Assembly (NCBI GenBank): GCA_963771355.1
Contig: CAVYTA010000006.1
Span: forward strand, 2,272,001-2,336,000
Origin: an uncultured Candidatus Rokubacteria bacterium
Lineage (GTDB): Bacteria > Methylomirabilota > Methylomirabilia > Rokubacteriales > CSP1-6
Reading direction: 5' to 3'
Length of the DNA: 64,000 bases
In this document: positions 2,505 to 13,375 of the stretch, one piece after another
How positions within the stretch are numbered: position 1 is the first letter of the stretch
Layout of the letters: every line of letters starts with the position of its first letter
Program-made: the position numbers and the translations under genes
Notes under the pieces: model-generated
Databases searched by the model: none
Told to the model about the DNA's origin: nothing
Seen by the model: only the letters and a program-made list of their open reading frames with translations

Positions 2505-3932
2505 GTGGCACGTCCCAGCGCGAAGTTCTGGCTCTTCCTCGTCCTCATTCCCGCGCTCGCGATCGTGGGGGGCGTCTCCGTGCTCGCCTGGCGGCAAACC
2601 GTGCCCGGCGTCAAGGCGGAGCTCGTGCCCATCCCGCGCTTCCTCGGCGTGAAGACCCCGCTCACGGTGGTGCTGCGCGCGGCCAAGGGCGGCCTGGTGA
2701 GCGCGGAGCTGCGGCTCGTGCAGGGCCAGGGACGCGTGGTCCTGGCGAGCCCCACCTTCACCGGCGGGCCCGCCGAGCAGCGCCTCGATCTCACGGTGGA
2801 GGGACGCAGCACGGGGCTGCGCGAGGGGCAGGCGACGCTGGAGGTCCGTGCGCGTGACAACTACTGGCGGCTCCTCCGCGTCGACGACCGTCCGGTCCTC
2901 ACCCTGCCGGTGACGCTCGACTTCTCGCCGCCCACGCTGGAAGTGCTGGGGAGCACGCGCTATCTGACCCGGGGCGGCGGCGGACTCGTCGCGCTGCGCG
3001 CCCGGGGCGCCTCGCGCGTGGGCGTCAACGCCGGCGGCGTCTTCTTCCCCGCCGTTCCCGCCGGCGTCGAGGGCTCGGGCACCATGGTGGCCATGCTCGC
3101 GCTGCCGTGGGACCTGCCCGCGGGCGCCACCATCAGCGTGCTCGCCCAGGACGAGGCCGGCAACACGGTGACGCGCGGCGTGCCGGCGGAGATCAAGGCC
3201 CGGCGCTTCCCCACCGACACCATCGAGCTGAAGGAGGAGTTCCTCCGGCAGAAGGTGGCGGAGCTCCTTCCCGAGAAGGCCAACGCGGGCCCCGCCGAGA
3301 TCATTCCCGCCTTTCTCCGGATCAACCGCGAGCAGCGCAAGGCCGCGGAGCAGACCAAGCGCGAGCTCGCCGCCCGCAGCCAGCCGCGACCCCTGTGGGA
3401 GGGGGCCTTCGTGCAGCCGCGCAACACCAAGGTGTTCTCGAACTTCGCGGAGACGCGCTCCTACCGCTACGAGGGGCGCGAGGTGGACGTGCAGGTGCAC
3501 CTGGGCTACGACCTCGCCTCCAGCCGGCACAGCCCGGTGCCGGCCGCCAATTCGGGAGTGGTGATCTTCGCGGCGCCGCTCACCATCTACGGCAACACGG
3601 TGGTGCTGGACCATGGCTGGGGGCTGCAGACCCTCTACGCCCACCTCTCCTCGGTCACGGTGAAGGACGGCAACACCGTGCAGAAGGGGCAGGAGCTGGG
3701 CCGCACCGGCACCACCGGGCTCGCGGTGGGCGATCACCTCCACTACGAAGTCCTGATCCACGGTATCCCGGTGACGCCGCTCGAGTGGTGGGACGGCCGC
3801 TGGATCCGCGACCACATCGGCCGGCCGCTGCGGGACGCAAGCCTGCCCGCGGCGATGGCGGGCACCGCGCCCCCCTCCGAGGACGACGACCGCTCCGCGG
3901 CGCGCCGCCGGCGCGGCGACCGGAGCCGCTGA
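2505..3932 (+). CDS. M23 family metallopeptidase
   Basis: N-terminal TM; HLGYD (HxxxD), YGNTVVLDHG, YAHLS, GDHLHYE. Confidence 0.9.
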   Translation: MARPSAKFWLFLVLIPALAIVGGVSVLAWRQTVPGVKAELVPIPRFLGVKTPLTVVLRAAKGGLVSAELRLVQGQGRVVLASPTFTGGPAEQRLDLTVEGRSTGLREGQATLEVRARDNYWRLLRVDDRPVLTLPVTLDFSPPTLEVLGSTRYLTRGGGGLVALRARGASRVGVNAGGVFFPAVPAGVEGSGTMVAMLALPWDLPAGATISVLAQDEAGNTVTRGVPAEIKARRFPTDTIELKEEFLRQKVAELLPEKANAGPAEIIPAFLRINREQRKAAEQTKRELAARSQPRPLWEGAFVQPRNTKVFSNFAETRSYRYEGREVDVQVHLGYDLASSRHSPVPAANSGVVIFAAPLTIYGNTVVLDHGWGLQTLYAHLSSVTVKDGNTVQKGQELGRTGTTGLAVGDHLHYEVLIHGIPVTPLEWWDGRWIRDHIGRPLRDASLPAAMAGTAPPSEDDDRSAARRRRGDRSR

Positions 3933-3939
3933 GGGCGCG

Positions 3940-5259
3940 TCAGCGCGGCCCCGGCATCATCTGCCGGGGCAGCCAGAGGGCCAAGTCCGGGAACGCGAAC
4001 AGCAGCGCCACCAGCACGATCATCAACACCACATAGGGCGTGGTGCCGACGGTGATGTCCCGCGCGCGGCTGCCCGGCATGAGGTTCTGGATCACGAAGA
4101 GGTTGAGCCCCACCGGAGGCGTGATGAACCCGATCTCCAGCCACACCACCATGATGATGCCGAACCACACCGGGTCGAAGCCGAGACCGGTGATGAGCGG
4201 AAAGAGGATGGGGAGCAGGATGATCATCACCGACAGCTCCTCCAGCGCGTAGGCGATCACGAGGAGGAAGGCGAACACCGCGGTGAAGAAGGCCCACTTG
4301 GGCAGCCCGAGGCCGGTGACCAGGGCCAGCAGCGCCTTGGGCGCGCCGAGGAGCGCGATCACGTGGGAGAAGATCGCCGCGAAGACGATGATGAGCATGA
4401 CCATGGCGGTGGTGCGCACCGTCTCCTGGAACGCCTGGTTCAAGGTGGCCCAGGAGAGGTTGCCGTACCAGCGCGCCAGCACCAGGCTGACCACGGTACC
4501 GAGCGCGGCCGCCTCCGTCGGCGTCACGATGCCGATATACATGGAGCCGAGCACGGTGAAGATCAGGATGGCGACGGGCGCCACCTCGCCGAAGGACTTG
4601 AGCTTTTCCCTGAAGGTCCCGCTGTCCGACGCGATCCGCGGCGCCGATTCCGGCCAGAAAGCCGCATAGCCGATCGCCCAACCCGCGAAGAGCAGCGCCA
4701 GCAGGGCGCCGGGGACGATGCCGGCCATGTAGAGGTGGCCGACCGAGGTCTCCGTCATCACGCCGTAGATGATCATGGGCACCGAGGGCGGGATGAGGAT
4801 GCCGAGCGTCCCGCCGGCCGCGATGGCGCCGATGATGAGCGGCTTCGCATACCCCCGCCGCTCCATCTCGGGAATGGCGATCATGCCGATGGTGGCGGCG
4901 GTGGCGACGCTGGAGCCCGACACCGCCGCGAAGATGGCGCAGGAGAAGATGCTCGCCACCGCGAGCCCGCCGGGGAGGAAGCCCACCCAGCGCGCCACCG
5001 CGGTGAAGAGTCCCTTGCCGATGCCCGAGTGCAGAAGGATGCCGCTCATGAAGACGAAGAGGGGGACGGCGACGAAGGTGAAGCTGGTCGCGTTGGACCA
5101 GGCGATGGAGCCCACCACCCCGAGCCCCACCGTCCAGCCCTTGAGGTAGAGCAGCCCCAGGACGCCCACAATGCCCATCGCGAGGGCGATCTCCATCCCC
5201 ATCGCGAAGAGGAGGAACATCAGCGCGACGAGCAGCGCGCCGAGGCCGGCCTCGCTCAC
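3940..5259 (-). CDS. dctM: TRAP transporter large permease
   Basis: SGSSVATAA, GILIPPS, TPTEAAA, ITPPVGLNLF; GTG start overlaps the dctQ stop. Confidence 0.92.
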   Translation of the reverse strand: MSEAGLGALLVALMFLLFAMGMEIALAMGIVGVLGLLYLKGWTVGLGVVGSIAWSNATSFTFVAVPLFVFMSGILLHSGIGKGLFTAVARWVGFLPGGLAVASIFSCAIFAAVSGSSVATAATIGMIAIPEMERRGYAKPLIIGAIAAGGTLGILIPPSVPMIIYGVMTETSVGHLYMAGIVPGALLALLFAGWAIGYAAFWPESAPRIASDSGTFREKLKSFGEVAPVAILIFTVLGSMYIGIVTPTEAAALGTVVSLVLARWYGNLSWATLNQAFQETVRTTAMVMLIIVFAAIFSHVIALLGAPKALLALVTGLGLPKWAFFTAVFAFLLVIAYALEELSVMIILLPILFPLITGLGFDPVWFGIIMVVWLEIGFITPPVGLNLFVIQNLMPGSRARDITVGTTPYVVLMIVLVALLFAFPDLALWLPRQMMPGPR

Positions 5260-5768
5260 CCGGTCTCCGTCGTGGGCGGCACCTCGTCGCGGCGGTCCCG
5301 CGGACCCAGCGCGGCCCGCAGCTGACGGCGGAGCGTCCCCACCATGCACAGCGCCATCAGCAGGAGGCCGGCGGGAATGAGGAGCATCGGCACCCAGAGC
5401 GGGTAGAGCAGCACCGCGGAGACGCGACCGTAGCGGTACGCGGTGAGCGCCGACTGGGAAGTGACCCAGATGACCACCGCGAGGAAGACGAGACCCAGCG
5501 CGAGGTTGAGGAGCCGCAGCCACGCGCGCGCCGCCGGCGGCAGGTGGGACGTCACCAGGTCCATGCGCACGTGGCCGCCCACGCGGTAGGTCTGGGCGGC
5601 GGCGCCGAACACCACCAGGAGCAGGAGGAAGGGACCGATCTCGTCCACGATGAGCTGCGGACGGTTGAAGAAGTACCGCATGAGGACGTCGAAGGAGATG
5701 AGCAGGGCCAGGACCAGGGTGGCCAGTCCCGACACCAGCGCCGACGCTTTCGACGCCCTCCCGATCAC
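5256..5768 (-). CDS. dctQ: TRAP transporter small permease
   Basis: 4 TM, DVLMRY, GHVRMD; between dctP and dctM. Confidence 0.88.
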   Translation of the reverse strand: MIGRASKASALVSGLATLVLALLISFDVLMRYFFNRPQLIVDEIGPFLLLLVVFGAAAQTYRVGGHVRMDLVTSHLPPAARAWLRLLNLALGLVFLAVVIWVTSQSALTAYRYGRVSAVLLYPLWVPMLLIPAGLLLMALCMVGTLRRQLRAALGPRDRRDEVPPTTETG

Positions 5769-5778
5769 GCGGGCGTGA

Positions 5779-6804
5779 CTATCGGCCCAGCGCCTTCAAC
5801 GCGAGCTCCAGGCCCCGCTTGCCGTCGGCCCCCGTGCGCTGAAGCCAGGTGTCCCAGGCGGCTCTGGCGATCTGCCGCGCCTTCGCCAGCTCGTCCTTGG
5901 ACGGCTCGACGATGGTCATGCCCAGCTCGGGCAGCCGCTTGCGCGTGCGCTCCTCGGCGGCGGCGGCGTCCTGCCACTCCTTCTCCTCGAGGTTGGACTC
6001 CTTGACCGCGTCCAGCACCGCCGCCTGGAGATCCTTGGGGAGTCCGTCCCACGCCTTCTGATTGGCCACCAGCCACTCCTGCGCGGCGCCGGCGAGGTAC
6101 CAGTAGTCGAGGAACTTCGCCACCTCGAAGAACTTCATGGGCTCGGCGTTGGTGGCGGAGGTCATGGCTCCGTCCACCGTCTTCTTCTCCAGCGCGGAGT
6201 ACACCTCGCCGAAGGCGATGTTGACCGGCGACCCGCCCAGCAGGCGGGTGACGTTGGCGGAGTCGGCGCCGTACACGCGGATCTTCTTGCCCTTCCAGTC
6301 GGCCACGGTGCGGATGGGCACGGTGGAGAAGATCTGCTGCGACGGCCACGTGTTGATGGAGAGGAGCTTGAGGCCCTTCCGGGCCAGCATCTCGGTGTAG
6401 AAGGGCCGGAGCTGCATCGCCGCCTTCTTGTGCTCCTCGATGCTCGACGTCATGAACGGCAGCTCCAGCGGCCCCATCTCCAGGAGCACGTCGGTGAGGT
6501 ACGACGCCAGTACCGTGCCCACCTCGGAGCGGCCGTCGAGGACGGCGGGGATCAGCTCCGGCCCCGGGTAGAGCGAGGAGGCGGGGTGGACGCGGATCTC
6601 CATCCGGCCGCCCGACTTCTCCTTCAGCTTGGCGGCGAAGGCATTGTAGTTCACGGTGTGGTAGTAGGTCGGCGCCGCCACCGTGGGGAGGTTCCACACG
6701 ATCGGCTTCGCCTGGGCGCCCACGGGCGCCGGCGTCAGGGTGGCCCCGCCCGCCAGCACGGCGAGGACGGCGAGCACCGCGCTCAGATACGCGAGCTTCT
6801 TCAT
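5779..6804 (-). CDS. dctP: TRAP transporter substrate-binding protein
   Basis: Signal peptide; LELPF, DWKGKKIRV, GEVYSALEKKTVDG. Confidence 0.92.
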   Translation of the reverse strand: MKKLAYLSAVLAVLAVLAGGATLTPAPVGAQAKPIVWNLPTVAAPTYYHTVNYNAFAAKLKEKSGGRMEIRVHPASSLYPGPELIPAVLDGRSEVGTVLASYLTDVLLEMGPLELPFMTSSIEEHKKAAMQLRPFYTEMLARKGLKLLSINTWPSQQIFSTVPIRTVADWKGKKIRVYGADSANVTRLLGGSPVNIAFGEVYSALEKKTVDGAMTSATNAEPMKFFEVAKFLDYWYLAGAAQEWLVANQKAWDGLPKDLQAAVLDAVKESNLEEKEWQDAAAAEERTRKRLPELGMTIVEPSKDELAKARQIARAAWDTWLQRTGADGKRGLELALKALGR

Positions 6805-6821
6805 CGAATGCCCCTTTCGCG

Positions 6822-7334
6822 TCAGACCGGTTCGACCAGCTTGGTGAGCATCTCGCCGAGCGCCGCTTCCGCCTTCCGCCGCTGATCCTCCGCGGTCTCC
6901 CCGCCCTTGCGGTGGGGGATCACCACCAGCGCGAGGTCAGGCACCGCTTGCAGCTTCGCCTGCATCCGGGCGGCCTTCTCGAAGTTGTCCCACACCACCG
7001 TCACCGTGTGTATCCCTCGCTTCTCCAGCGAGGCGGCGTCGAGCACACTGCCCGACGTGCACGACCCTCAGAGGCCGATGCCGACGACGGCGACGTCGGC
7101 CTGCGCGGCCTCCTCGATGAGGGAGGGCGGCGAGGGCGCGGTGCCCGACGGCTTCACCAGGCGCTTCACGGTGGCGCCCGCGCGCTCGGCCAGCAGGGTC
7201 TCGAGCCGCGTGGTGAACGGAATGTCGAGGTTGTCGTCCACGATGGCCACCGTGGCCCCCGCCAGCCCGCGGAGGCGGCGCTTGGCGGCGGGTCCTTCCA
7301 CCGCGCTGGACCAGACTGGGCTCAAGATCTCCAT
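6822..7334 (-). CDS. UGSC-family selenoprotein (Sec at codon 89, TGA 7068-7070), 170 aa
   Basis: ORFs 7068-7334 and 6822-7046 are one frame joined by TGA-GGG-TCG-TGC = U-G-S-C; hairpin 11 nt after the UGA. Confidence 0.85.
7038..7056 (-). promoter_or_regulatory. Putative bacterial SECIS hairpin
   Basis: GUCGGGCA-GUG-UGCUCGAC (8 bp with one G-U) starting 11 nt downstream of UGA; G at the loop apex. Confidence 0.7.
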
Positions 7335-7348
7335 GTCGTCGTTCTCCT

Positions 7349-8428
7349 TCAGCGGCCGCCGGGCCGCCGGATCTGGCGCGTGACCGCGTACCCGCCGAAA
7401 CCGCCCCAGCCCGGCAAGACCGCGGCGAAGTAGCTCCGGCCGCCCGCCACCACGATGTGGATGTCCTCCGGGTCGCGGGTCACCGGCACCCGCGTGGTGG
7501 GATTGACCAGGTCGTAGCGCAGGGGGTACCGGCCGGCGTCCTGCTCCATCTTGCGGAACTGCTCGTGGACGACGCCGCAGGCCCGCACGTCGCCGATCGG
7601 GCGGCGGGCGTGCTCCCACAGGTACTGCCGCACGTCCCCCTTGCTCCAGCCACGCTTGGCGAACTCCTCCGCGTTGAGCGGGTTCAGGGTCACCAGCATC
7701 TGCCCCATCACATGCATGTTGTTGTTGCCGAGCGAGCACATGGAGTCCGTCAGCACGTGCAGCATCTCCTCCGGCGTGCCGTAGCAGAATACGCTATGGG
7801 GTCCCTCGCAGGCAAAGACGGTGACCGCGTCCGAGCCCGGCGGGCAGCCGCGATCCACATGCAGCGGCGTCCAGGGATTGTCCTCCTCCTCCTCCGCGAT
7901 GCAGAAGGCGTACTCCCCCGGATGCGAGAGGGTGGACTTGTCGGTATCCCACGGCGTCGCGCCGCCCAGGTTCCAGAGGGCCAGGCGCACCGCCCGCCCC
8001 ACCGCGGCATTGGCCCGGTAGCCGTTGCCGAACACGCCGTCGCGCGAGTTGAAGTTGAGCGCGCGCGCGATGGGGCCGTTGACGATGACCAGCGAGACGC
8101 ACATGTGGGTGGTCTGGCTCACCCCGTTCAGGTTGTGGGCGGGATCGAGGAGCGCCTCCATGGCGGCGAGCACGACGGGAAAGTGCTCCGGACGGCAGCC
8201 CCCCATCACCGCGTTGATGGCGAGCTTCTCGACGGTGGCGGCGCCCCCCTTCGGCGGCACCGGCCCCAGGCTCTCCTGCGCGTCCCGCCCCACGTGGGCG
8301 ATGAGAGCCTCCACCCGGCGAGGCGTGGGAAGCACCACCGGCAGACCGTCCGTCCAGCCCCGCGTGAAGAACAGCTCGACCGCGTCCTCGTACTCGTCGA
8401 TGTTCAGGCGCTCTGATACCAGGTTCAT
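7349..8428 (-). CDS. Conserved hypothetical protein (GWTDGLPV family, usual partner of UGSC proteins)
   Basis: GWTDGLPVVLPT, EKLAINAVMGGC, GYRANAAVGRA, CIAEEE. Confidence 0.75.
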   Translation of the reverse strand: MNLVSERLNIDEYEDAVELFFTRGWTDGLPVVLPTPRRVEALIAHVGRDAQESLGPVPPKGGAATVEKLAINAVMGGCRPEHFPVVLAAMEALLDPAHNLNGVSQTTHMCVSLVIVNGPIARALNFNSRDGVFGNGYRANAAVGRAVRLALWNLGGATPWDTDKSTLSHPGEYAFCIAEEEEDNPWTPLHVDRGCPPGSDAVTVFACEGPHSVFCYGTPEEMLHVLTDSMCSLGNNNMHVMGQMLVTLNPLNAEEFAKRGWSKGDVRQYLWEHARRPIGDVRACGVVHEQFRKMEQDAGRYPLRYDLVNPTTRVPVTRDPEDIHIVVAGGRSYFAAVLPGWGGFGGYAVTRQIRRPGGR

Positions 8429-9468
8429 GGGTGTCCTCCCTCGTCACACGCCCGCGGCACCACCTCCCGCCCCCAGCGCTCGATGAAACGGCGCGGCTCG
8501 CGGACGAAGCCCGTGAGCAGGAGCTGCGGCGCGCCCGCCGCCGCCGCGCTCCGAGCCGCGGCCGCGCATTCCTCCGGCGTGCCCGCGATGGCGAAGCGGT
8601 CGGCGAGATAGTCGGTCAGCCCCCAGCGGTCGGTGAGGCCCGCGTTGGGGGTGGCGCCCAGCACCTCATGATGGTGGGGCTCGTACTCCTTACGCAGGCC
8701 GCGCACCTGCTCGTGGAGATCAGGGGCGAGCCCCTTGCCCTCGAAGGTGAAGCGGAAGGCGTGGTTGGCGCTCGCCGCCAGCGCCATCTTGATCGGCTCC
8801 ACCGCCGCCGCGCGGCTTTCCGCCACGTTGGATTTCACGAGCCACCACACGTCGAGGTCCTCCACGCGCCGCCCCCCGTCGCGGGCGCCCGCGGCGATGG
8901 CCTCCCAGCTGAGGCGCACCACGTCCGGGGTGAGCCCCAAGCCCACGATGATGCCATCCGCCACGCGGCCGGCGAGCCGGAGCATCTCGGGCCCTTCCGC
9001 GGCGAGATAGATGGGGATGCGCCGCTTGGCGTGACGCACCCGCCAGATATGCCCGCCGTGCTCCACCGGCTCGCCCGCGGTGAGCCGGTTCGCCGTGGCC
9101 ACCGCCTCCTCCAGCGCGGCGCGGGTGGCGGGCGCCGCGCCCACCGTATAGAGCGCGCTGTCTCCCGACCCCAGCCCGAGAACGGCGCGGCCGTCCGAGA
9201 CCTCGTCGAGGCTCGAGATCGCACTGGCGGTCACCACCGGATGCCGCGTCACTGGATTGCTCACGAGCGGCCCCAGGCGCGCGCGGCGGGTGGCCAGGGC
9301 GGCCACGGTGAGGCTCACGTACGCCTCGCGGAAGACCGACTGCGAGTCGCCGACCCCGAGGAGCTCGAAGCCGGCGTCCTCCGCCTCGCGGCAGGTGGCG
9401 CCGAACTCGCTCAGGACTTCGGGAAGCAGGATGAGGCCGAAACGGACGCGCGAGGCGCCCGCCGGCAT
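8425..9468 (-). CDS. LLM-class flavin/F420-dependent oxidoreductase (Mer-like)
   Basis: GDSQ, NPVTRHPVVTA, GRAVLGLGSGDS, PIYLAAEGP, ADGII. Confidence 0.88.
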   Translation of the reverse strand: MPAGASRVRFGLILLPEVLSEFGATCREAEDAGFELLGVGDSQSVFREAYVSLTVAALATRRARLGPLVSNPVTRHPVVTASAISSLDEVSDGRAVLGLGSGDSALYTVGAAPATRAALEEAVATANRLTAGEPVEHGGHIWRVRHAKRRIPIYLAAEGPEMLRLAGRVADGIIVGLGLTPDVVRLSWEAIAAGARDGGRRVEDLDVWWLVKSNVAESRAAAVEPIKMALAASANHAFRFTFEGKGLAPDLHEQVRGLRKEYEPHHHEVLGATPNAGLTDRWGLTDYLADRFAIAGTPEECAAAARSAAAAGAPQLLLTGFVREPRRFIERWGREVVPRACDEGGHP

Positions 9469-9469
9469 C

Positions 9470-10291
9470 TCAACGCGCCTCGCCCGGCCGATCGGCGGCG
9501 CCCAGCACTCGCGAGAGCGACCGCGCGGTGTCCTTGACCTGCTTGGCGAGGCGCGCGAAGTTCGCGTTCATCCGCGCGCTCGGGCCGGCCACCACCAGCG
9601 CCGCGGTGAGCTGGCCCTCGCGGTCGAAGATGGGCGCGGAGATGCCCCCCGCTCCCTCCACCACTTCCTCGCGGGTCACCGAGAGCCCGGTACGCCGGAT
9701 CTCGGCCAGGTTGCGCTTGAGCGCGGCGCGGTCGGTGATGGTGTGTCGGGCCACCGGCTTGAGCCGCGTGGAGTGCAGGTACTCGTCCTGCGCCTCCGGC
9801 GTCATGTAGGCGAGGAAGAGCTTGCCGATGGCCGAGCAGTACAGCGGCCGGCGCTCGCCGAGGGAGACCGTGTAACGGAGCGGGTTCTGACTGTCCACCT
9901 TGTCGATGTAGACGGCCACCGGGGCGTCGGTGGCCAGGGTGCCGATGAGTGCGGTCTCGCCGCTGCGCTCCACCAGATCCTCGAGGAAGGGGCGCGCCAG
10001 CTCCGGGAGCTCGCGGCTGGACAGCGCCGCCATCGCGAAGGTGAAGGCGCCCGGACCCAGCCGGTAGCGGCTGTCGGCGCCGCGCACGAGATACCCCAGC
10101 CGGGTGAGCGAGCGCAGGAGATAGAAGAGGCTCGACTTGGGAGAGCCGAGCCGCTGGCTCAGCTCGCTGAGGGTCTCCCCTTCGCGGTGGCGCGCGAGGA
10201 CCTCCAGCGTTTGCAGCACGCGGCCGATGGCGCGCGGCCCCCCGTCGCGGGGTCGCTGGGCACTGCTTTCGGACTGGGTCTCGGTTCGCAT
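9470..10291 (-). CDS. IclR family transcriptional regulator
   Basis: N-terminal wHTH (LSELSQRLGSPKSS), YRLGP, GERRPLYCSAIGK, ISAPIFD. Confidence 0.93.
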   Translation of the reverse strand: MRTETQSESSAQRPRDGGPRAIGRVLQTLEVLARHREGETLSELSQRLGSPKSSLFYLLRSLTRLGYLVRGADSRYRLGPGAFTFAMAALSSRELPELARPFLEDLVERSGETALIGTLATDAPVAVYIDKVDSQNPLRYTVSLGERRPLYCSAIGKLFLAYMTPEAQDEYLHSTRLKPVARHTITDRAALKRNLAEIRRTGLSVTREEVVEGAGGISAPIFDREGQLTAALVVAGPSARMNANFARLAKQVKDTARSLSRVLGAADRPGEAR

Positions 10292-10321
10292 ATATGAAGT
10301 CGTATCGGAAGACCGAATTGC

Positions 10322-10350
10322 ACACTACGCAGGCAGCCCGCGTGTGTCAA
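10322..10350 (-). promoter_or_regulatory. Sigma70 promoter of the iclR operon
   Basis: TTGACA-N17-TAGTGT on the minus strand; imperfect palindrome TTCGCATATATGAA (10285-10298) over the start codon may be an operator. Confidence 0.6.
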
Positions 10351-11540
10351 ACGCTTGGGCGAAGGAGGGAGCCCGCGGGGACGAAATCGCCGAGCACGCC
10401 CAGCACCTGGTCGAGCCGCGCGGGACGGCGCGCGAGGGTGTGCGCGGCGAGGTTGGCGAGGAGCCGGTGGGCGATGAGCCCCTGCAGCGCGCGCGTGAGC
10501 CGCGCCTTGCCGCGGAACGCCGCGCGGCGCGCGCGCCCGTACGGCGCGAGCGCGGCGCGCGAGCACTCGCCCCCGCGGAGCGCGTCGTGGGCGACCTCCG
10601 CCAGGAGCTCGGCGCCGCGGAGCGCAGTGTAGAGGCCTTCGCCGGTGAAGGGATCGTAGAAGCCGCCCGCGTCCCCCACCAGGGCCACTCCATCCGCGCG
10701 CGGCTCGGCCACGTGATAGGCGAGCGGGCCCATGGCCATGAGCGGACCCACCGCTCGGAGTCCGGCGAGGCGCGGGGCCAGGTGGCGGAGCTGCTTGAGC
10801 CGCGCCGCGAAGAAGACGTCGAGCCGCCCGCGATAGGGCTGAACATGCGCCAGCGGCACCACCAGGCTCAGGTTCGCGACCCCCACCGCCACCGGATTGA
10901 GGATGGAGTAGTCGGGCGGGTCCACGTAGATCTCGCCCATGTCGTCGAGACCGGCGAGGCCCTCCACGTCCTGAACGAGCGCCATCCGCTGCAGGCGATG
11001 CGGGCGCACGAGCCCCAGCGCGCGTGCCACCACGGACGCGCGGCCGTCCGCGCCCACCACCAGCCGGGCGCCCACCTCGAAGGGCCGGCCGGCGGCGTCC
11101 TCCGCCTGGACTCCCGCGACCCGGCCCCCGTCCATCCGCAACCCGGTGACGCGGTGGCGCTCGCGCGCGTCCGCGGTGAGCCCCCGCGCACGCTCGAGGA
11201 GGATGCGGTCGAGGATCTCGCGGGGCACCGCGAGGGCGTGGTCCCGATAGCCGCGCCAGGGGCCCGCGGTGGGATAGCGGCCCTCCAGCCGGGTGCCGTC
11301 GGGCGCCACGATGCGCATGCCCCGCAGCGGCCGCGCACCCGCCGCGTCCACCTCCTTGAGGGCGCCCAGGCGGTCGAGGATGCGCGCCGCTTCCGGGGAG
11401 AGATACTCGCCGCAGATCTTCGGCCGGGGAAAGGCCGCCTTGTCGAGGAGCAACACCGACCAGCCCCGCTCGGCGAGGAGGATGGCGGTGGCGCTGCCGG
11501 CGGGGCCCGCGCCCACCACGATCACGTCATAGGTGCTCAT
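10347..11540 (-). CDS. NAD(P)/FAD-dependent oxidoreductase (geranylgeranyl-reductase/monooxygenase-like)
   Basis: DVIVVGAGPAG, FPRPKICGE, VGADG, LVGDAGGFYDPFTGEG. Confidence 0.85.
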   Translation of the reverse strand: MSTYDVIVVGAGPAGSATAILLAERGWSVLLLDKAAFPRPKICGEYLSPEAARILDRLGALKEVDAAGARPLRGMRIVAPDGTRLEGRYPTAGPWRGYRDHALAVPREILDRILLERARGLTADARERHRVTGLRMDGGRVAGVQAEDAAGRPFEVGARLVVGADGRASVVARALGLVRPHRLQRMALVQDVEGLAGLDDMGEIYVDPPDYSILNPVAVGVANLSLVVPLAHVQPYRGRLDVFFAARLKQLRHLAPRLAGLRAVGPLMAMGPLAYHVAEPRADGVALVGDAGGFYDPFTGEGLYTALRGAELLAEVAHDALRGGECSRAALAPYGRARRAAFRGKARLTRALQGLIAHRLLANLAAHTLARRPARLDQVLGVLGDFVPAGSLLRPSV

Positions 11541-12265
11541 CGCGCGAGCCCGCGGCCGCCGACCAGACAGTAGCGCAGCAAGGGCGCGTAGCGGCGAATC
11601 ACCACGTGACGAAGTCCCGCGCGCGCGCAGAGCCCGCGCACCTCGTCGGGGGTGTACGCGCGCTTCACGGACAGCGGCCCGTCGTGACGCGACAGCCGGC
11701 CGCAGGCCAGCACGCGCGTGGCGAGCCACACCAGGATCAGGGCGGTGCGGCTCCGCGCGAGATCGTTCACCACCAGGCCCGCACGCGCCACCGCGTCCAT
11801 GGCGGCGAGGTACGCCGCCGCGGCGGCGGGCTCGAGGTGATGCAGGGTGAGCGCGGAGATGGCAAGGTCCACCGACTCGGGGCGGAAGGGGAGCGCGAGC
11901 GCGTCGGCGCGCACGAACGTGATCTCCCCGTAGCCGTCGGTGGCCTGGCGCGCCACCGCCAGCGTGGCCGCGTCCAGGTCGAGCGCGATGACCCGGAGAG
12001 ATCGCCCCGCGCGGCGGGCCCAGCGCACCAGCGCCCGCGGGATGTCGGCGCTGCCGGTGCCGACGTCGAGCACGGTGACGGGCCGGTCCGGCGGGTAGCG
12101 GGCGAGGAGACGCCGCACATGGCGGAGGGTGACGAGGCGCCCGCCGAAGACGCCGTTGAGCCGCGCCACGTCGCCGAGGCTCCGCACGAGATCGCGGAAC
12201 GGCACCGGTCCGTCGAGAAGCTCGCGGACTCCAGCCGCCCGCGGCAACGGTGCGAAGAGGGGCAT
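11537..12265 (-). CDS. Class I SAM-dependent methyltransferase
   Basis: VLDVGTGSADI, LTLHHL, VVNDLAR, HDGPLSVKRAY. Confidence 0.85.
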   Translation of the reverse strand: MPLFAPLPRAAGVRELLDGPVPFRDLVRSLGDVARLNGVFGGRLVTLRHVRRLLARYPPDRPVTVLDVGTGSADIPRALVRWARRAGRSLRVIALDLDAATLAVARQATDGYGEITFVRADALALPFRPESVDLAISALTLHHLEPAAAAAYLAAMDAVARAGLVVNDLARSRTALILVWLATRVLACGRLSRHDGPLSVKRAYTPDEVRGLCARAGLRHVVIRRYAPLLRYCLVGGRGLAR

Positions 12266-12266
12266 G

Positions 12267-13304
12267 CTACCAGCGCAGCAACGCGCCCTCGGCGGCGAAG
12301 CCGGGGCCGAGCGCGATCATGAGCCCCCAGTCACCGGGCCGCGGGGCGCCGGCGCGCAGCGCCTCCTCCAGCACGAAGACCACGGTGGCGGAGGACATGT
12401 TGCCGAAGGCACGGAGCACGTGGCGAGAGTGGGCGAGCTGGTCGTCGGTGAGGTCGAGAAGCTTCTTCGCGTGCTCGATCACGCGGCGGCCGGCGGAGTG
12501 CAGCACGAAGTGGCGCACGTCGTCCTTCTTGAGTCCCTGGCTCTCCATCAGGAGATCGGCCATCTCCTTCATCATGCCGGCGCCGATGCGCCGCACTTCC
12601 TTGGAGAGCACCACGCGGGGCCGCCCGCCCGGGTACTCGAAGCCCATGGCGGGAAGGTGCTCGGGGCGGAACAGCGTGCGGTGCTCCACCACCGCGGGGC
12701 CGTGGGCGTCGTTGGACAGCGCGATGGCGCCCGCGCCGTCGGCGAAGATCGCGTGCGCCACCGCGCTCTCGAGCCGGTCGTCGAGATAGTAGGCGGCGGA
12801 GCAGAGCTCGACCGCCACCATCACCGCGCGATGGCGCGGGAACGCGCGGAGGTGGTTCCAGGCCTGCTGGAGGGCGACCACCGCGGACGCGCAGCCGGTA
12901 TCCCCCACGTGGACCCGCTGGACCTGGGGCCGCAGCCCCAGCGCACGGATGAGGTGGGCGTCGAGGCTCGGGCACAGGCGACCCGTGCAGGTGGTGGTCG
13001 CGAGGAAATCCACGTCCTCGGGCCGCCAGCCCGCGCGCTGCACGGCCAGGCGAACCGCCTCGGTGGCCAGCTCGACGGCGCCGCGCTGGAAGCGGTCGTT
13101 GAGCTCGTCGACCGTCTCGTGCGGCGTCTGGCCCGCCTTGAAGGTCTCCGGGTCGAAGTAGAGGTAGCGGCCCTCGATCTGGCTGTTGGCGAAGAAGCCC
13201 GCCCGCTGGGCGTCGCCGTAGCCGGCCATGCCGAGGACGGTGCGCTGGTCGAAGCGGTGGCGGGGGGTGGCGGTCGCGACGCCCGCGATCTTGGGCGTGG
13301 TCAT
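12267..13304 (-). CDS. Type III polyketide synthase
   Basis: Catalytic Cys (DTGCAS), His (FVLHSAG), Asn (FGNMSSAT); IFADGAGA; LGPGFAAE. Confidence 0.9.
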   Translation of the reverse strand: MTTPKIAGVATATPRHRFDQRTVLGMAGYGDAQRAGFFANSQIEGRYLYFDPETFKAGQTPHETVDELNDRFQRGAVELATEAVRLAVQRAGWRPEDVDFLATTTCTGRLCPSLDAHLIRALGLRPQVQRVHVGDTGCASAVVALQQAWNHLRAFPRHRAVMVAVELCSAAYYLDDRLESAVAHAIFADGAGAIALSNDAHGPAVVEHRTLFRPEHLPAMGFEYPGGRPRVVLSKEVRRIGAGMMKEMADLLMESQGLKKDDVRHFVLHSAGRRVIEHAKKLLDLTDDQLAHSRHVLRAFGNMSSATVVFVLEEALRAGAPRPGDWGLMIALGPGFAAEGALLRW

Positions 13305-13375
13305 GGGCGCAGGGTACGCCCCGGCTATTGTCATGTCCAGGAGCCGGGTGCTAGCGTGACCGAAAGGAGTTCCCC

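Follow-up and report, generated by a model that had tools for sequence, protein, structure and literature searches.

A UGSC-family selenoprotein with a predicted second subunit in a conserved regulator-importer gene row of a Rokubacteria genome

We analysed a row of seven genes at positions 3940-10350 of a 64,000-nt stretch of contig CAVYTA010000006.1 from an uncultured Candidatus Rokubacteria bacterium; this whole stretch is called the window below. The row encodes a real selenoprotein of the named but uncharacterised UGSC family, together with a predicted second subunit, the GWTDGLP protein (the partner). The selenoprotein contains a GrdB-like active-site domain, and the pair lies in a conserved regulator-enzyme-importer row, in which the gene of the luciferase-like monooxygenase (LLM) class is incidental. 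As the best explanation, to which we give a probability of about 0.5, we propose that UGSC and the partner form a two-subunit selenoenzyme that would act on an organic acid taken up through the tripartite ATP-independent periplasmic (TRAP) transporter and break one of its bonds by reduction, likely under autorepression by the IclR-family regulator. The observed elements of this reading are the gene order, the selenocysteine (Sec) machinery, the conserved UGA codon with its hairpin, the conserved pairing of the two genes and their natural fusions.

The gene row

All seven genes are on the minus strand; the features of the row are as follows.

9470-10291, minus: IclR-family regulator, 273 amino acids (aa) (PF01614, PF09339)
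8425-9468, minus: LLM-class oxidoreductase, Mer-like and probably F420-dependent, 347 aa (PF00296)
7349-8428, minus: GWTDGLP protein, 359 aa, UGSC partner and predicted large subunit (no Pfam or NCBIfam family)
6822-7334, minus: UGSC selenoprotein, 170 aa, U89-G-S-C92 (PF24696, motif IGL-U-GSCTSG)
7068-7070, minus: in-frame TGA, predicted Sec89
7037-7057, minus: 9-bp hairpin resembling a selenocysteine insertion sequence (SECIS), +14 to +34, G in loop
5779-6804, minus: DctP solute-binding protein, 341 aa (PF03480)
6277-6279, minus: conserved Arg176 codon of DctP
5256-5768, minus: DctQ small permease (PF04290)
3940-5259, minus: DctM large permease, 439 aa (PF06808)

The gene order, the short gaps and overlaps (1, -4, 14, 17, 10 and -4 nt from iclR to dctM) and the promoter sequence are present as an earlier sequence-only reading had described them. 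With a complete DctP, DctQ and DctM set and the binding arginine, the last three genes encode a DctP-type TRAP transporter. RNA contigs from four runs of two studies covered the genes and their flanks evenly in short pieces, which may derive from DNA, and neither co-transcription nor expression is evident in them. Close relatives in named records are mostly from Rokubacteria or Methylomirabilota.

Selenocysteine at the in-frame UGA

The UGSC protein matches PF24696, a predicted selenoprotein family of uncharacterised function (PMC13188914), with 114 bits (cut-off 25); against the NCBIfam equivalog NF041046 it scored 84.3 bits, under the cut-off of 125. The motif, the PF24696 score and the partner motifs, which agree with the domain named Unknown_1, all place it with the published family (PMC2398784, PMC1976440, PMC13188914). 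It differs from other members in being a divergent subfamily, only 27-30% identical to the paralogues in its own genome.

The UGA at 7068-7070 almost certainly encodes Sec, and we infer that it is read through, because selA, selB, selC and selD are present in the genome, a SECIS-like hairpin lies downstream and a Cys variant occurs in a genome in which selA was not detected. In the host genome (99.8% complete), selA, selB and selD were found over their cut-offs, together with tRNA-Sec. A single TGA is present in 6/6 PF24696 matches of the same genome. Cys takes the Sec position in natural variants, with TGT at locus L041 and Cys in P0284-P0287 and others. Among betaproteobacterial genomes, 4/4 with TGA copies have selA over cut-off and one with a Cys copy does not, the completeness of these five genomes not being given.

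These data also speak against a true stop at this UGA, which would make the two half open reading frames (88 and ~74 aa) separate proteins or a broken gene. Gene callers do split the UGSC frame here, and a GTG is located 8 codons past the UGA; however, all 150 PF24696 matches listed, from 41/41 related genomes (48 further matches stand outside the listing), have one TGA at the same place, natural variants carry Cys there, the Sec machinery co-varies with the TGA, and the UGA sits inside one compact modelled domain. We consider the probability of a true stop close to negligible, and the read-through proposed from the sequence is thus supported by machinery, conserved TGA, hairpin and Cys co-variation.

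The 9-bp hairpin of the window copy has similar counterparts in four of the five paralogues of the genome. Its loop uses the Ser codon AGT, which makes up 2% of Ser codons genome-wide and 10/272 elsewhere in these genes; at the loop position, AGT was found in 32/33 TGA copies and in 71/71 readable copies among 80 metagenome loci, counts that come from related sequences and not from independent cases. The sole Cys copy carries ACT at this position.

In two betaproteobacterial orthologue loci (L033 and L036), selB adjoins the UGSC-partner pair; at L033, two UGSC copies flank an ABC transporter. The host genome also encodes a SelD with CxxC and no Sec, fused to an upstream NADH-dehydrogenase-like domain (L005, C4 near 225000). 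At another locus of this genome (L014, C5:163680-165323), a UGSC-like domain with U-S-T-C reads in frame into a partner domain as a read-through fusion; this copy lacks the SECIS-like hairpin that the others have.

The partner and the predicted complex

The partner belongs to no Pfam or NCBIfam family, and it has 5243 relatives among representatives at 50% identity. Its motifs match the Unknown_1 domain of Fig. S1A in PMC2398784, which was published in 2008 as a UGSC fusion; the UGSC-partner link has therefore been in print since then. UGSC follows the partner gene in 65 of the 67 informative metagenome loci and was detected with it in 30/35 genome loci. Among 149 diverse partner representatives, 43 carry a UGSC domain, which is whole in 15. 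UGSC has six copies in the host genome and the partner eight, and their contexts vary; two of the eight partners are without an adjoining UGSC gene. Single representatives are fused to AhpC/TSA, ferredoxin-thioredoxin reductase beta or pyridine nucleotide-disulphide oxidoreductase domains, as seen in a scan of nine representatives picked by eye. Six other proteins (P0144, P0160, P0179, P0182, P0217 and P0219) are ~710-740 aa in length and apparently consist of two tandem partner domains, and acidobacterial loci L044-L047 contain three to four tandem partner genes, most of them behind a short conserved open reading frame.

The conserved polar residues of the partner include D27, N72, C78, N99, T106, T107, R138, N140, R145, N153, D163, C176 and E179; Cys78 is 97% conserved and Cys176 92%. 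A sequence search of the PDB gave nothing significant. The partner was modelled with a predicted local distance difference test (pLDDT) score of 89, and structure searches with this model gave no match at Z >= 5, by which a new fold is not shown. The best match, a weak one, is the alpha part of class I Fe-S fumarate hydratase (Z 4.2, root-mean-square deviation (rmsd) 5.0, 181 aligned residues; Foldseek E 5e-4, TM 0.24). In the ESM Atlas, only unnamed clusters were hit, plus one UGSC-containing cluster at 0.89, which is of low recognition value.

The complex was modelled with the natural Cys pair of L041, whose members are 68% and 54% identical to the window proteins. This pair scored 0.84 and the best of three controls 0.00; the mark for a complex is reached by 116/157 solved complexes and by 2/215 mismatched pairs, a calibration that is rough for our own alignments. 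The runs agreed in at least 93% of contacts, with a partner pLDDT of at least 88. In the predicted complex, an N-terminal arm of UGSC (residues 1-8) docks on the N-terminal region of the partner, and UGSC residues 89-91 and 93-95, that is, the Sec position and its helix, lie in the interface together with partner residues 96-107 and 153-164. Sec89 is thereby predicted to face the conserved partner region N99/T106/T107/N153/D163. No solved relatives of the modelled proteins were found by sequence, so the prediction is unlikely to reproduce a complex already solved. Taken together, the natural fusions and this model of homologues support the earlier proposal that UGSC and the partner are likely two subunits of one enzyme, for which a structure prediction had been suggested.

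Relation to GrdB-type selenoproteins

The UGSC model (pLDDT 91) is built of five strand-helix units, and its U-x-x-C motif opens helix 3. Its listed structural matches are flavodoxin- or receiver-like domains; thioredoxin is not among them, although families outside the listing are possible. The best natural match is a chain of the methyl-coenzyme M reductase (MCR) activation complex (Z 11.2, rmsd 3.8, 131 aligned residues), tied with many receiver-like domains. Our model differs here from the published view, in which the UGSC fold is called likely thioredoxin-like (PMC2398784, PMC13188914).

Using HHalign, a profile of 61 UGSC sequences was compared with 23 putative GrdB-like proteins from related genomes, defined by PF07355. 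The two aligned with a probability of 95.1% over 92 columns, from just before Sec through the C-terminus; masking of the Sec column left 92.7%, and reversal gave 1.0%. Among ~5050 proteins of the host genome, 17/23 GrdB-like proteins were found by the UGSC profile at E <0.1. Like GrdB and PrdB, UGSC has a U-G-x-C-type motif after a strand, and the aligned helix-strand segment reaches the C-terminus; in both systems the second subunit is predicted to hold the substrate, and thiol-based recharging is likely. Different from GrdB and PrdB, UGSC has no match to PF07355, whose model ends just before Sec, and is without the N-terminal GrdB region; the partner is unrelated to GrdE-like pyruvoyl proproteins, and grdA, grdC and prdC are absent from the operon. 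The partner also showed no similarity to the N-terminal part of GrdB. PF07355 has no match in the host genome, and 88/121 genomes of the phylum match it. Many GrdB-like genes of the phylum (L050-L078) read U-G-T-S/G-T-R-C, in which the Cys of UxxC is lost and a later Cys kept. The UGSC literature, as far as its accessible text goes and with subscription journals uncovered, consists of surveys and reviews and states no function, physical complex, operon context or GrdB link.

The structural matches can be read in another way, with the pair as an enzyme that uses a metal or an Fe-S cluster, such as an organic-acid hydro-lyase or isomerase, and that catalyses no net reduction; Sec89/Cys92 and Cys78/Cys176 would then be cluster ligands or catalytic groups. 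The fumarate hydratase match of the partner, its two highly conserved Cys residues and the MCR activation match of UGSC, tied as it is, are consistent with this. However, common arrangements give Z values in this range too, the partner has only two conserved Cys against three cluster cysteines in class I fumarate hydratase, and Se-S cycling is indicated instead by the UxxC located at the N-terminus of a helix, by the alignment with GrdB and by the thioredoxin-type fusions. We hold a metal or Fe-S enzyme to be improbable.

Conservation of the gene row

Genome counts refer to 251 genomes of the phylum, with 8-9 candidates scored per genome; metagenome counts refer to the best 80 of 154 loci. A partner orthologue with at least 80% identity was found in 27/251 genomes, and orthologous dctP was adjacent to it in 17 of them, elsewhere in six and not found in four. 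Orthologous TRAP genes follow the pair in 39 of the 52 metagenome loci with enough flank. An iclR orthologue lies within 21/63 metagenome loci and abuts the partner gene in 17. The LLM gene is adjacent in 3/27 genomes, all of one genus, and in 5/63 metagenome loci, all at least 92% identical and all nearest relatives; none of 16 fetched loci of LLM orthologues contained the partner, UGSC or dctP. A search for partner orthologues in 172 genomes of one betaproteobacterial family returned the starting genome only.

Judged from these gene orders, the conserved unit is (iclR)-partner-UGSC-dctPQM, and insertion of the LLM gene into a pre-existing iclR-partner-UGSC-dctPQM row is most likely. Since LLM is rarely adjacent, and only in the nearest relatives, its position gives no clue to a shared pathway, and we rejected it as a pathway member on these counts. 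Of the linkage that the sequence-only reading had assumed and proposed to examine in homologues, the association of the pair with the TRAP importer is thus conserved, whereas that with LLM is not.

By sequence, the best solved relatives of the LLM protein are Mer enzymes (PDB 1F07 and 8QPM, E 1e-36). It resembles these F420-dependent enzymes in its PF00296 domain; different from them, it stays under every NCBIfam cut-off and is one of many LLM paralogues. The host genome has cofD. Together with the tight translational coupling of the gene (1 and -4 nt) and a different LLM (48%) at L162 and L163, where it lies upstream of the pair, this would fit a row that forms one conserved pathway, in which an F420-dependent LLM and the Sec pair act sequentially on one imported acid. 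The confinement of the LLM gene to nearest relatives, its 16/16 orthologue loci without the pair or dctP and the direct junction of iclR and partner in 17 loci contradict such a pathway, which we regard as quite improbable.

Behind more distant orthologues of the pair lie genes for other binding proteins, of the DctP, TctC or LivK type; as these families are unrelated, acid uptake appears to be a recurring context. In one lineage (L017-L019, L021 and several of L152-L165), dctQM remain behind UGSC and the orthologous dctP is elsewhere in the genome. A second row of the host genome, outside the window, has the order UGSC-partner-dctPQM (L080, 4422-8899).

Proposed reaction

For D-proline reductase, a mechanism has been proposed in which Sec attacks the alpha carbon and a PrdB cysteine cleaves the selenoether (PMC3091704). 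By analogy with PrdB and GrdB, the two-subunit selenoenzyme may work as follows. The TRAP transporter would import a substituted carboxylate, which the partner would bind and activate in place of a pyruvoyl subunit. The selenolate of Sec89 would attack the substituted carbon of the bound carboxylate; Cys92 would then release the product, leaving an Se-S bond, and a thioredoxin-type system would re-reduce this bond. The LLM enzyme would be an optional local addition. A gene similar to thioredoxin reductase (TrxR) is present in four loci of betaproteobacterial type (L032, L033, L036 and L199).

Several results weigh against this proposal. Orthologous dctP occurs in 39 genomes, of which 16 are without a detected orthologous partner; one genome of the same genus has iclR-dctPQM directly, without the pair; and for the paralogous locus L080 of the host genome, the pair is beside its TRAP genes in only 5/13 genomes. 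The window operon has no TrxR-like donor. PF07355 was matched by 0/31 UGSC members, and the comparison of the partner with 10 GrdE-like proteins gave an HHalign probability of 0.1%, that is, no similarity, so the substrate-activation step would be without precedent. FtsZ ranks among the UGSC-profile hits together with the GrdB-like proteins, and part of the GrdB signal is therefore shared alpha/beta fold; we took the FtsZ hits themselves as fold-level noise. The hairpin of the window taken alone is not significant, as 6% of synonymous shuffles fold equally well; on a longer stretch, z is -1.7 and the minimum-free-energy fold is a different one, and in one paralogue of the genome the hairpin is missing. 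The complex was modelled for homologues and not for the window copy, and its prediction may have profited from the fused forms present in sequence databases. The use of the operon as a handle on the substrate, as proposed earlier, is made less firm by the genomes that have this dctP without a detected orthologous partner (16/39) and by the other binding proteins beside distant orthologues.

Some of these points would suit a general thiol-dependent reductase, for repair or detoxification of peroxide, disulphide or sulphoxide, which stands beside transporters through co-regulation or chance. The many copies in varied contexts of one genome, the persistence of TRAP genes without the pair and the thioredoxin-type fusions of the partner are in line with this, as is a peroxidase activity of GrdB, named in the title of a reference in PMC3091704. 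On the other hand, separate lineages carry genes of several binding-protein families behind the pair, the predicted complex turns Sec towards a conserved cleft in a large partner, and the many paralogues suggest different specific substrates. A general reductase deserves serious weight, although we find it unlikely.

Substrate lead

DctP keeps Arg176, the arginine linked to carboxylate selectivity (PMC4646407). Among solved proteins, it is closest to 2PFY and 2PFZ (~128 bits, E ~1e-35; next match 91 bits), the DctP7 and DctP6 receptors, which bind pyroglutamate (PMC3454389, PMC5812351); this ligand is also given in a supplement row of PMC11485210. The window DctP resembles both in overall sequence and in the conserved Arg; the similarity is remote and overall only, and pyroglutamate as its ligand is a weak lead. 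For ordinary pyroglutamate use, the host genome has a gene of the PxpA family. DctPs beside other copies of the pair match solved proteins other than 2PFY/2PFZ: the DctP of L080 is closest to 4MNC (481 bits), and the one beside a distant pair orthologue best matches 4P56. Putative ligands of 4MNC, 4P56 and 6WGM are benzoylformate (4MNC), mandelate and pyroglutamate.

A more far-reaching form of the two-subunit selenoenzyme can be built on this lead. UGSC and the partner would be a widespread third class of GrdB/PrdB-type selenoenzyme, with a large subunit that has no solved relative and with cleavage at the alpha carbon of carboxylates without pyruvoyl; the window copy would ring-open pyroglutamate or a comparable cyclic N-acyl acid, delivered by a DctP6/7-like transporter, and the paralogues would take different acids. 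One may speculate that, since a lactam nitrogen cannot form a pyruvoyl adduct, such a substrate would suit a PrdB-like enzyme with a different partner. Such a class is a long shot.

Promoter and IclR operator

The following elements were located upstream of and at the start of iclR.

10345-10350, minus: -35 box TTGACA, likely operon promoter (sequence; 18/18 orthologous upstream regions)
10322-10327, minus: candidate -10 box TAGTGT, 17 nt from the -35 box (sequence; 3/6 to consensus)
10305-10317: inverted repeat TCGG-N4-CCGA, the weaker of the two; likely the first of two tandem IclR operator sites (alignment of upstream regions)
10285-10298: inverted repeat across the iclR start codon, likely IclR operator (conserved across 18 regions)

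TTGACA stands at the same place in 18/18 distinct regions upstream of iclR orthologues and is therefore more than chance. At the -10 position, TAGTGT or TACTGT is found in four of these regions, and the others mostly have CACTCT. A scan for consensus promoters and terminators passed no promoter and listed one terminator-like site within iclR, which is at chance level; TTGACA-N17-TAGTGT was left out owing to the 3/6 match of its -10 box.

The centres of the two inverted repeats are ~19 nt apart, as counted by eye. Both resemble the group-1 IclR consensus GKTYCRYW3-4RYGRAMC; tandem sites with a spacing of 18-22 nt have been described (PMC8222616). Owing to this resemblance of the conserved repeats in consensus and tandem spacing, autorepression of the operon by IclR is likely. 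A pattern derived from the operator has a single match in the window (10285-10298); the pattern was built from these sites, and the match is hence no independent test.

Significance

UGSC is among the most abundant environmental bacterial selenoprotein families: in the Global Ocean Sampling (GOS) data, it is represented by 255 selenoprotein sequences and only 21 homologues with Cys (PMC2398784). A 2026 review still counts it as uncharacterised (PMC13188914). All 41 related genomes carry it, mostly in several copies. The UGSC-partner pair itself is not new; its operon context, the operator, the complex of homologues and the substrate lead make this row a good test case. The predicted complex, the GrdB-type link and the conserved regulator-transporter context make the function of UGSC testable: DctP and IclR are two soluble ligand sensors open to screening, and work with the natural Cys pair requires no Sec insertion. 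The partner, in turn, represents thousands of relatives with no family model and no clear structural match.

Neighbouring genes

A gene for an M23 peptidase related to Pgp6 (2505-3932, plus strand) converges on dctM, with 7 nt between the stops; the promoter and terminator scan found no terminator between the two. Immediately upstream of iclR, genes for a type III polyketide synthase, a methyltransferase and an FAD-dependent geranylgeranyl-reductase-like protein lie on the minus strand (10347-13334), and these genes are syntenic with iclR in many relatives.

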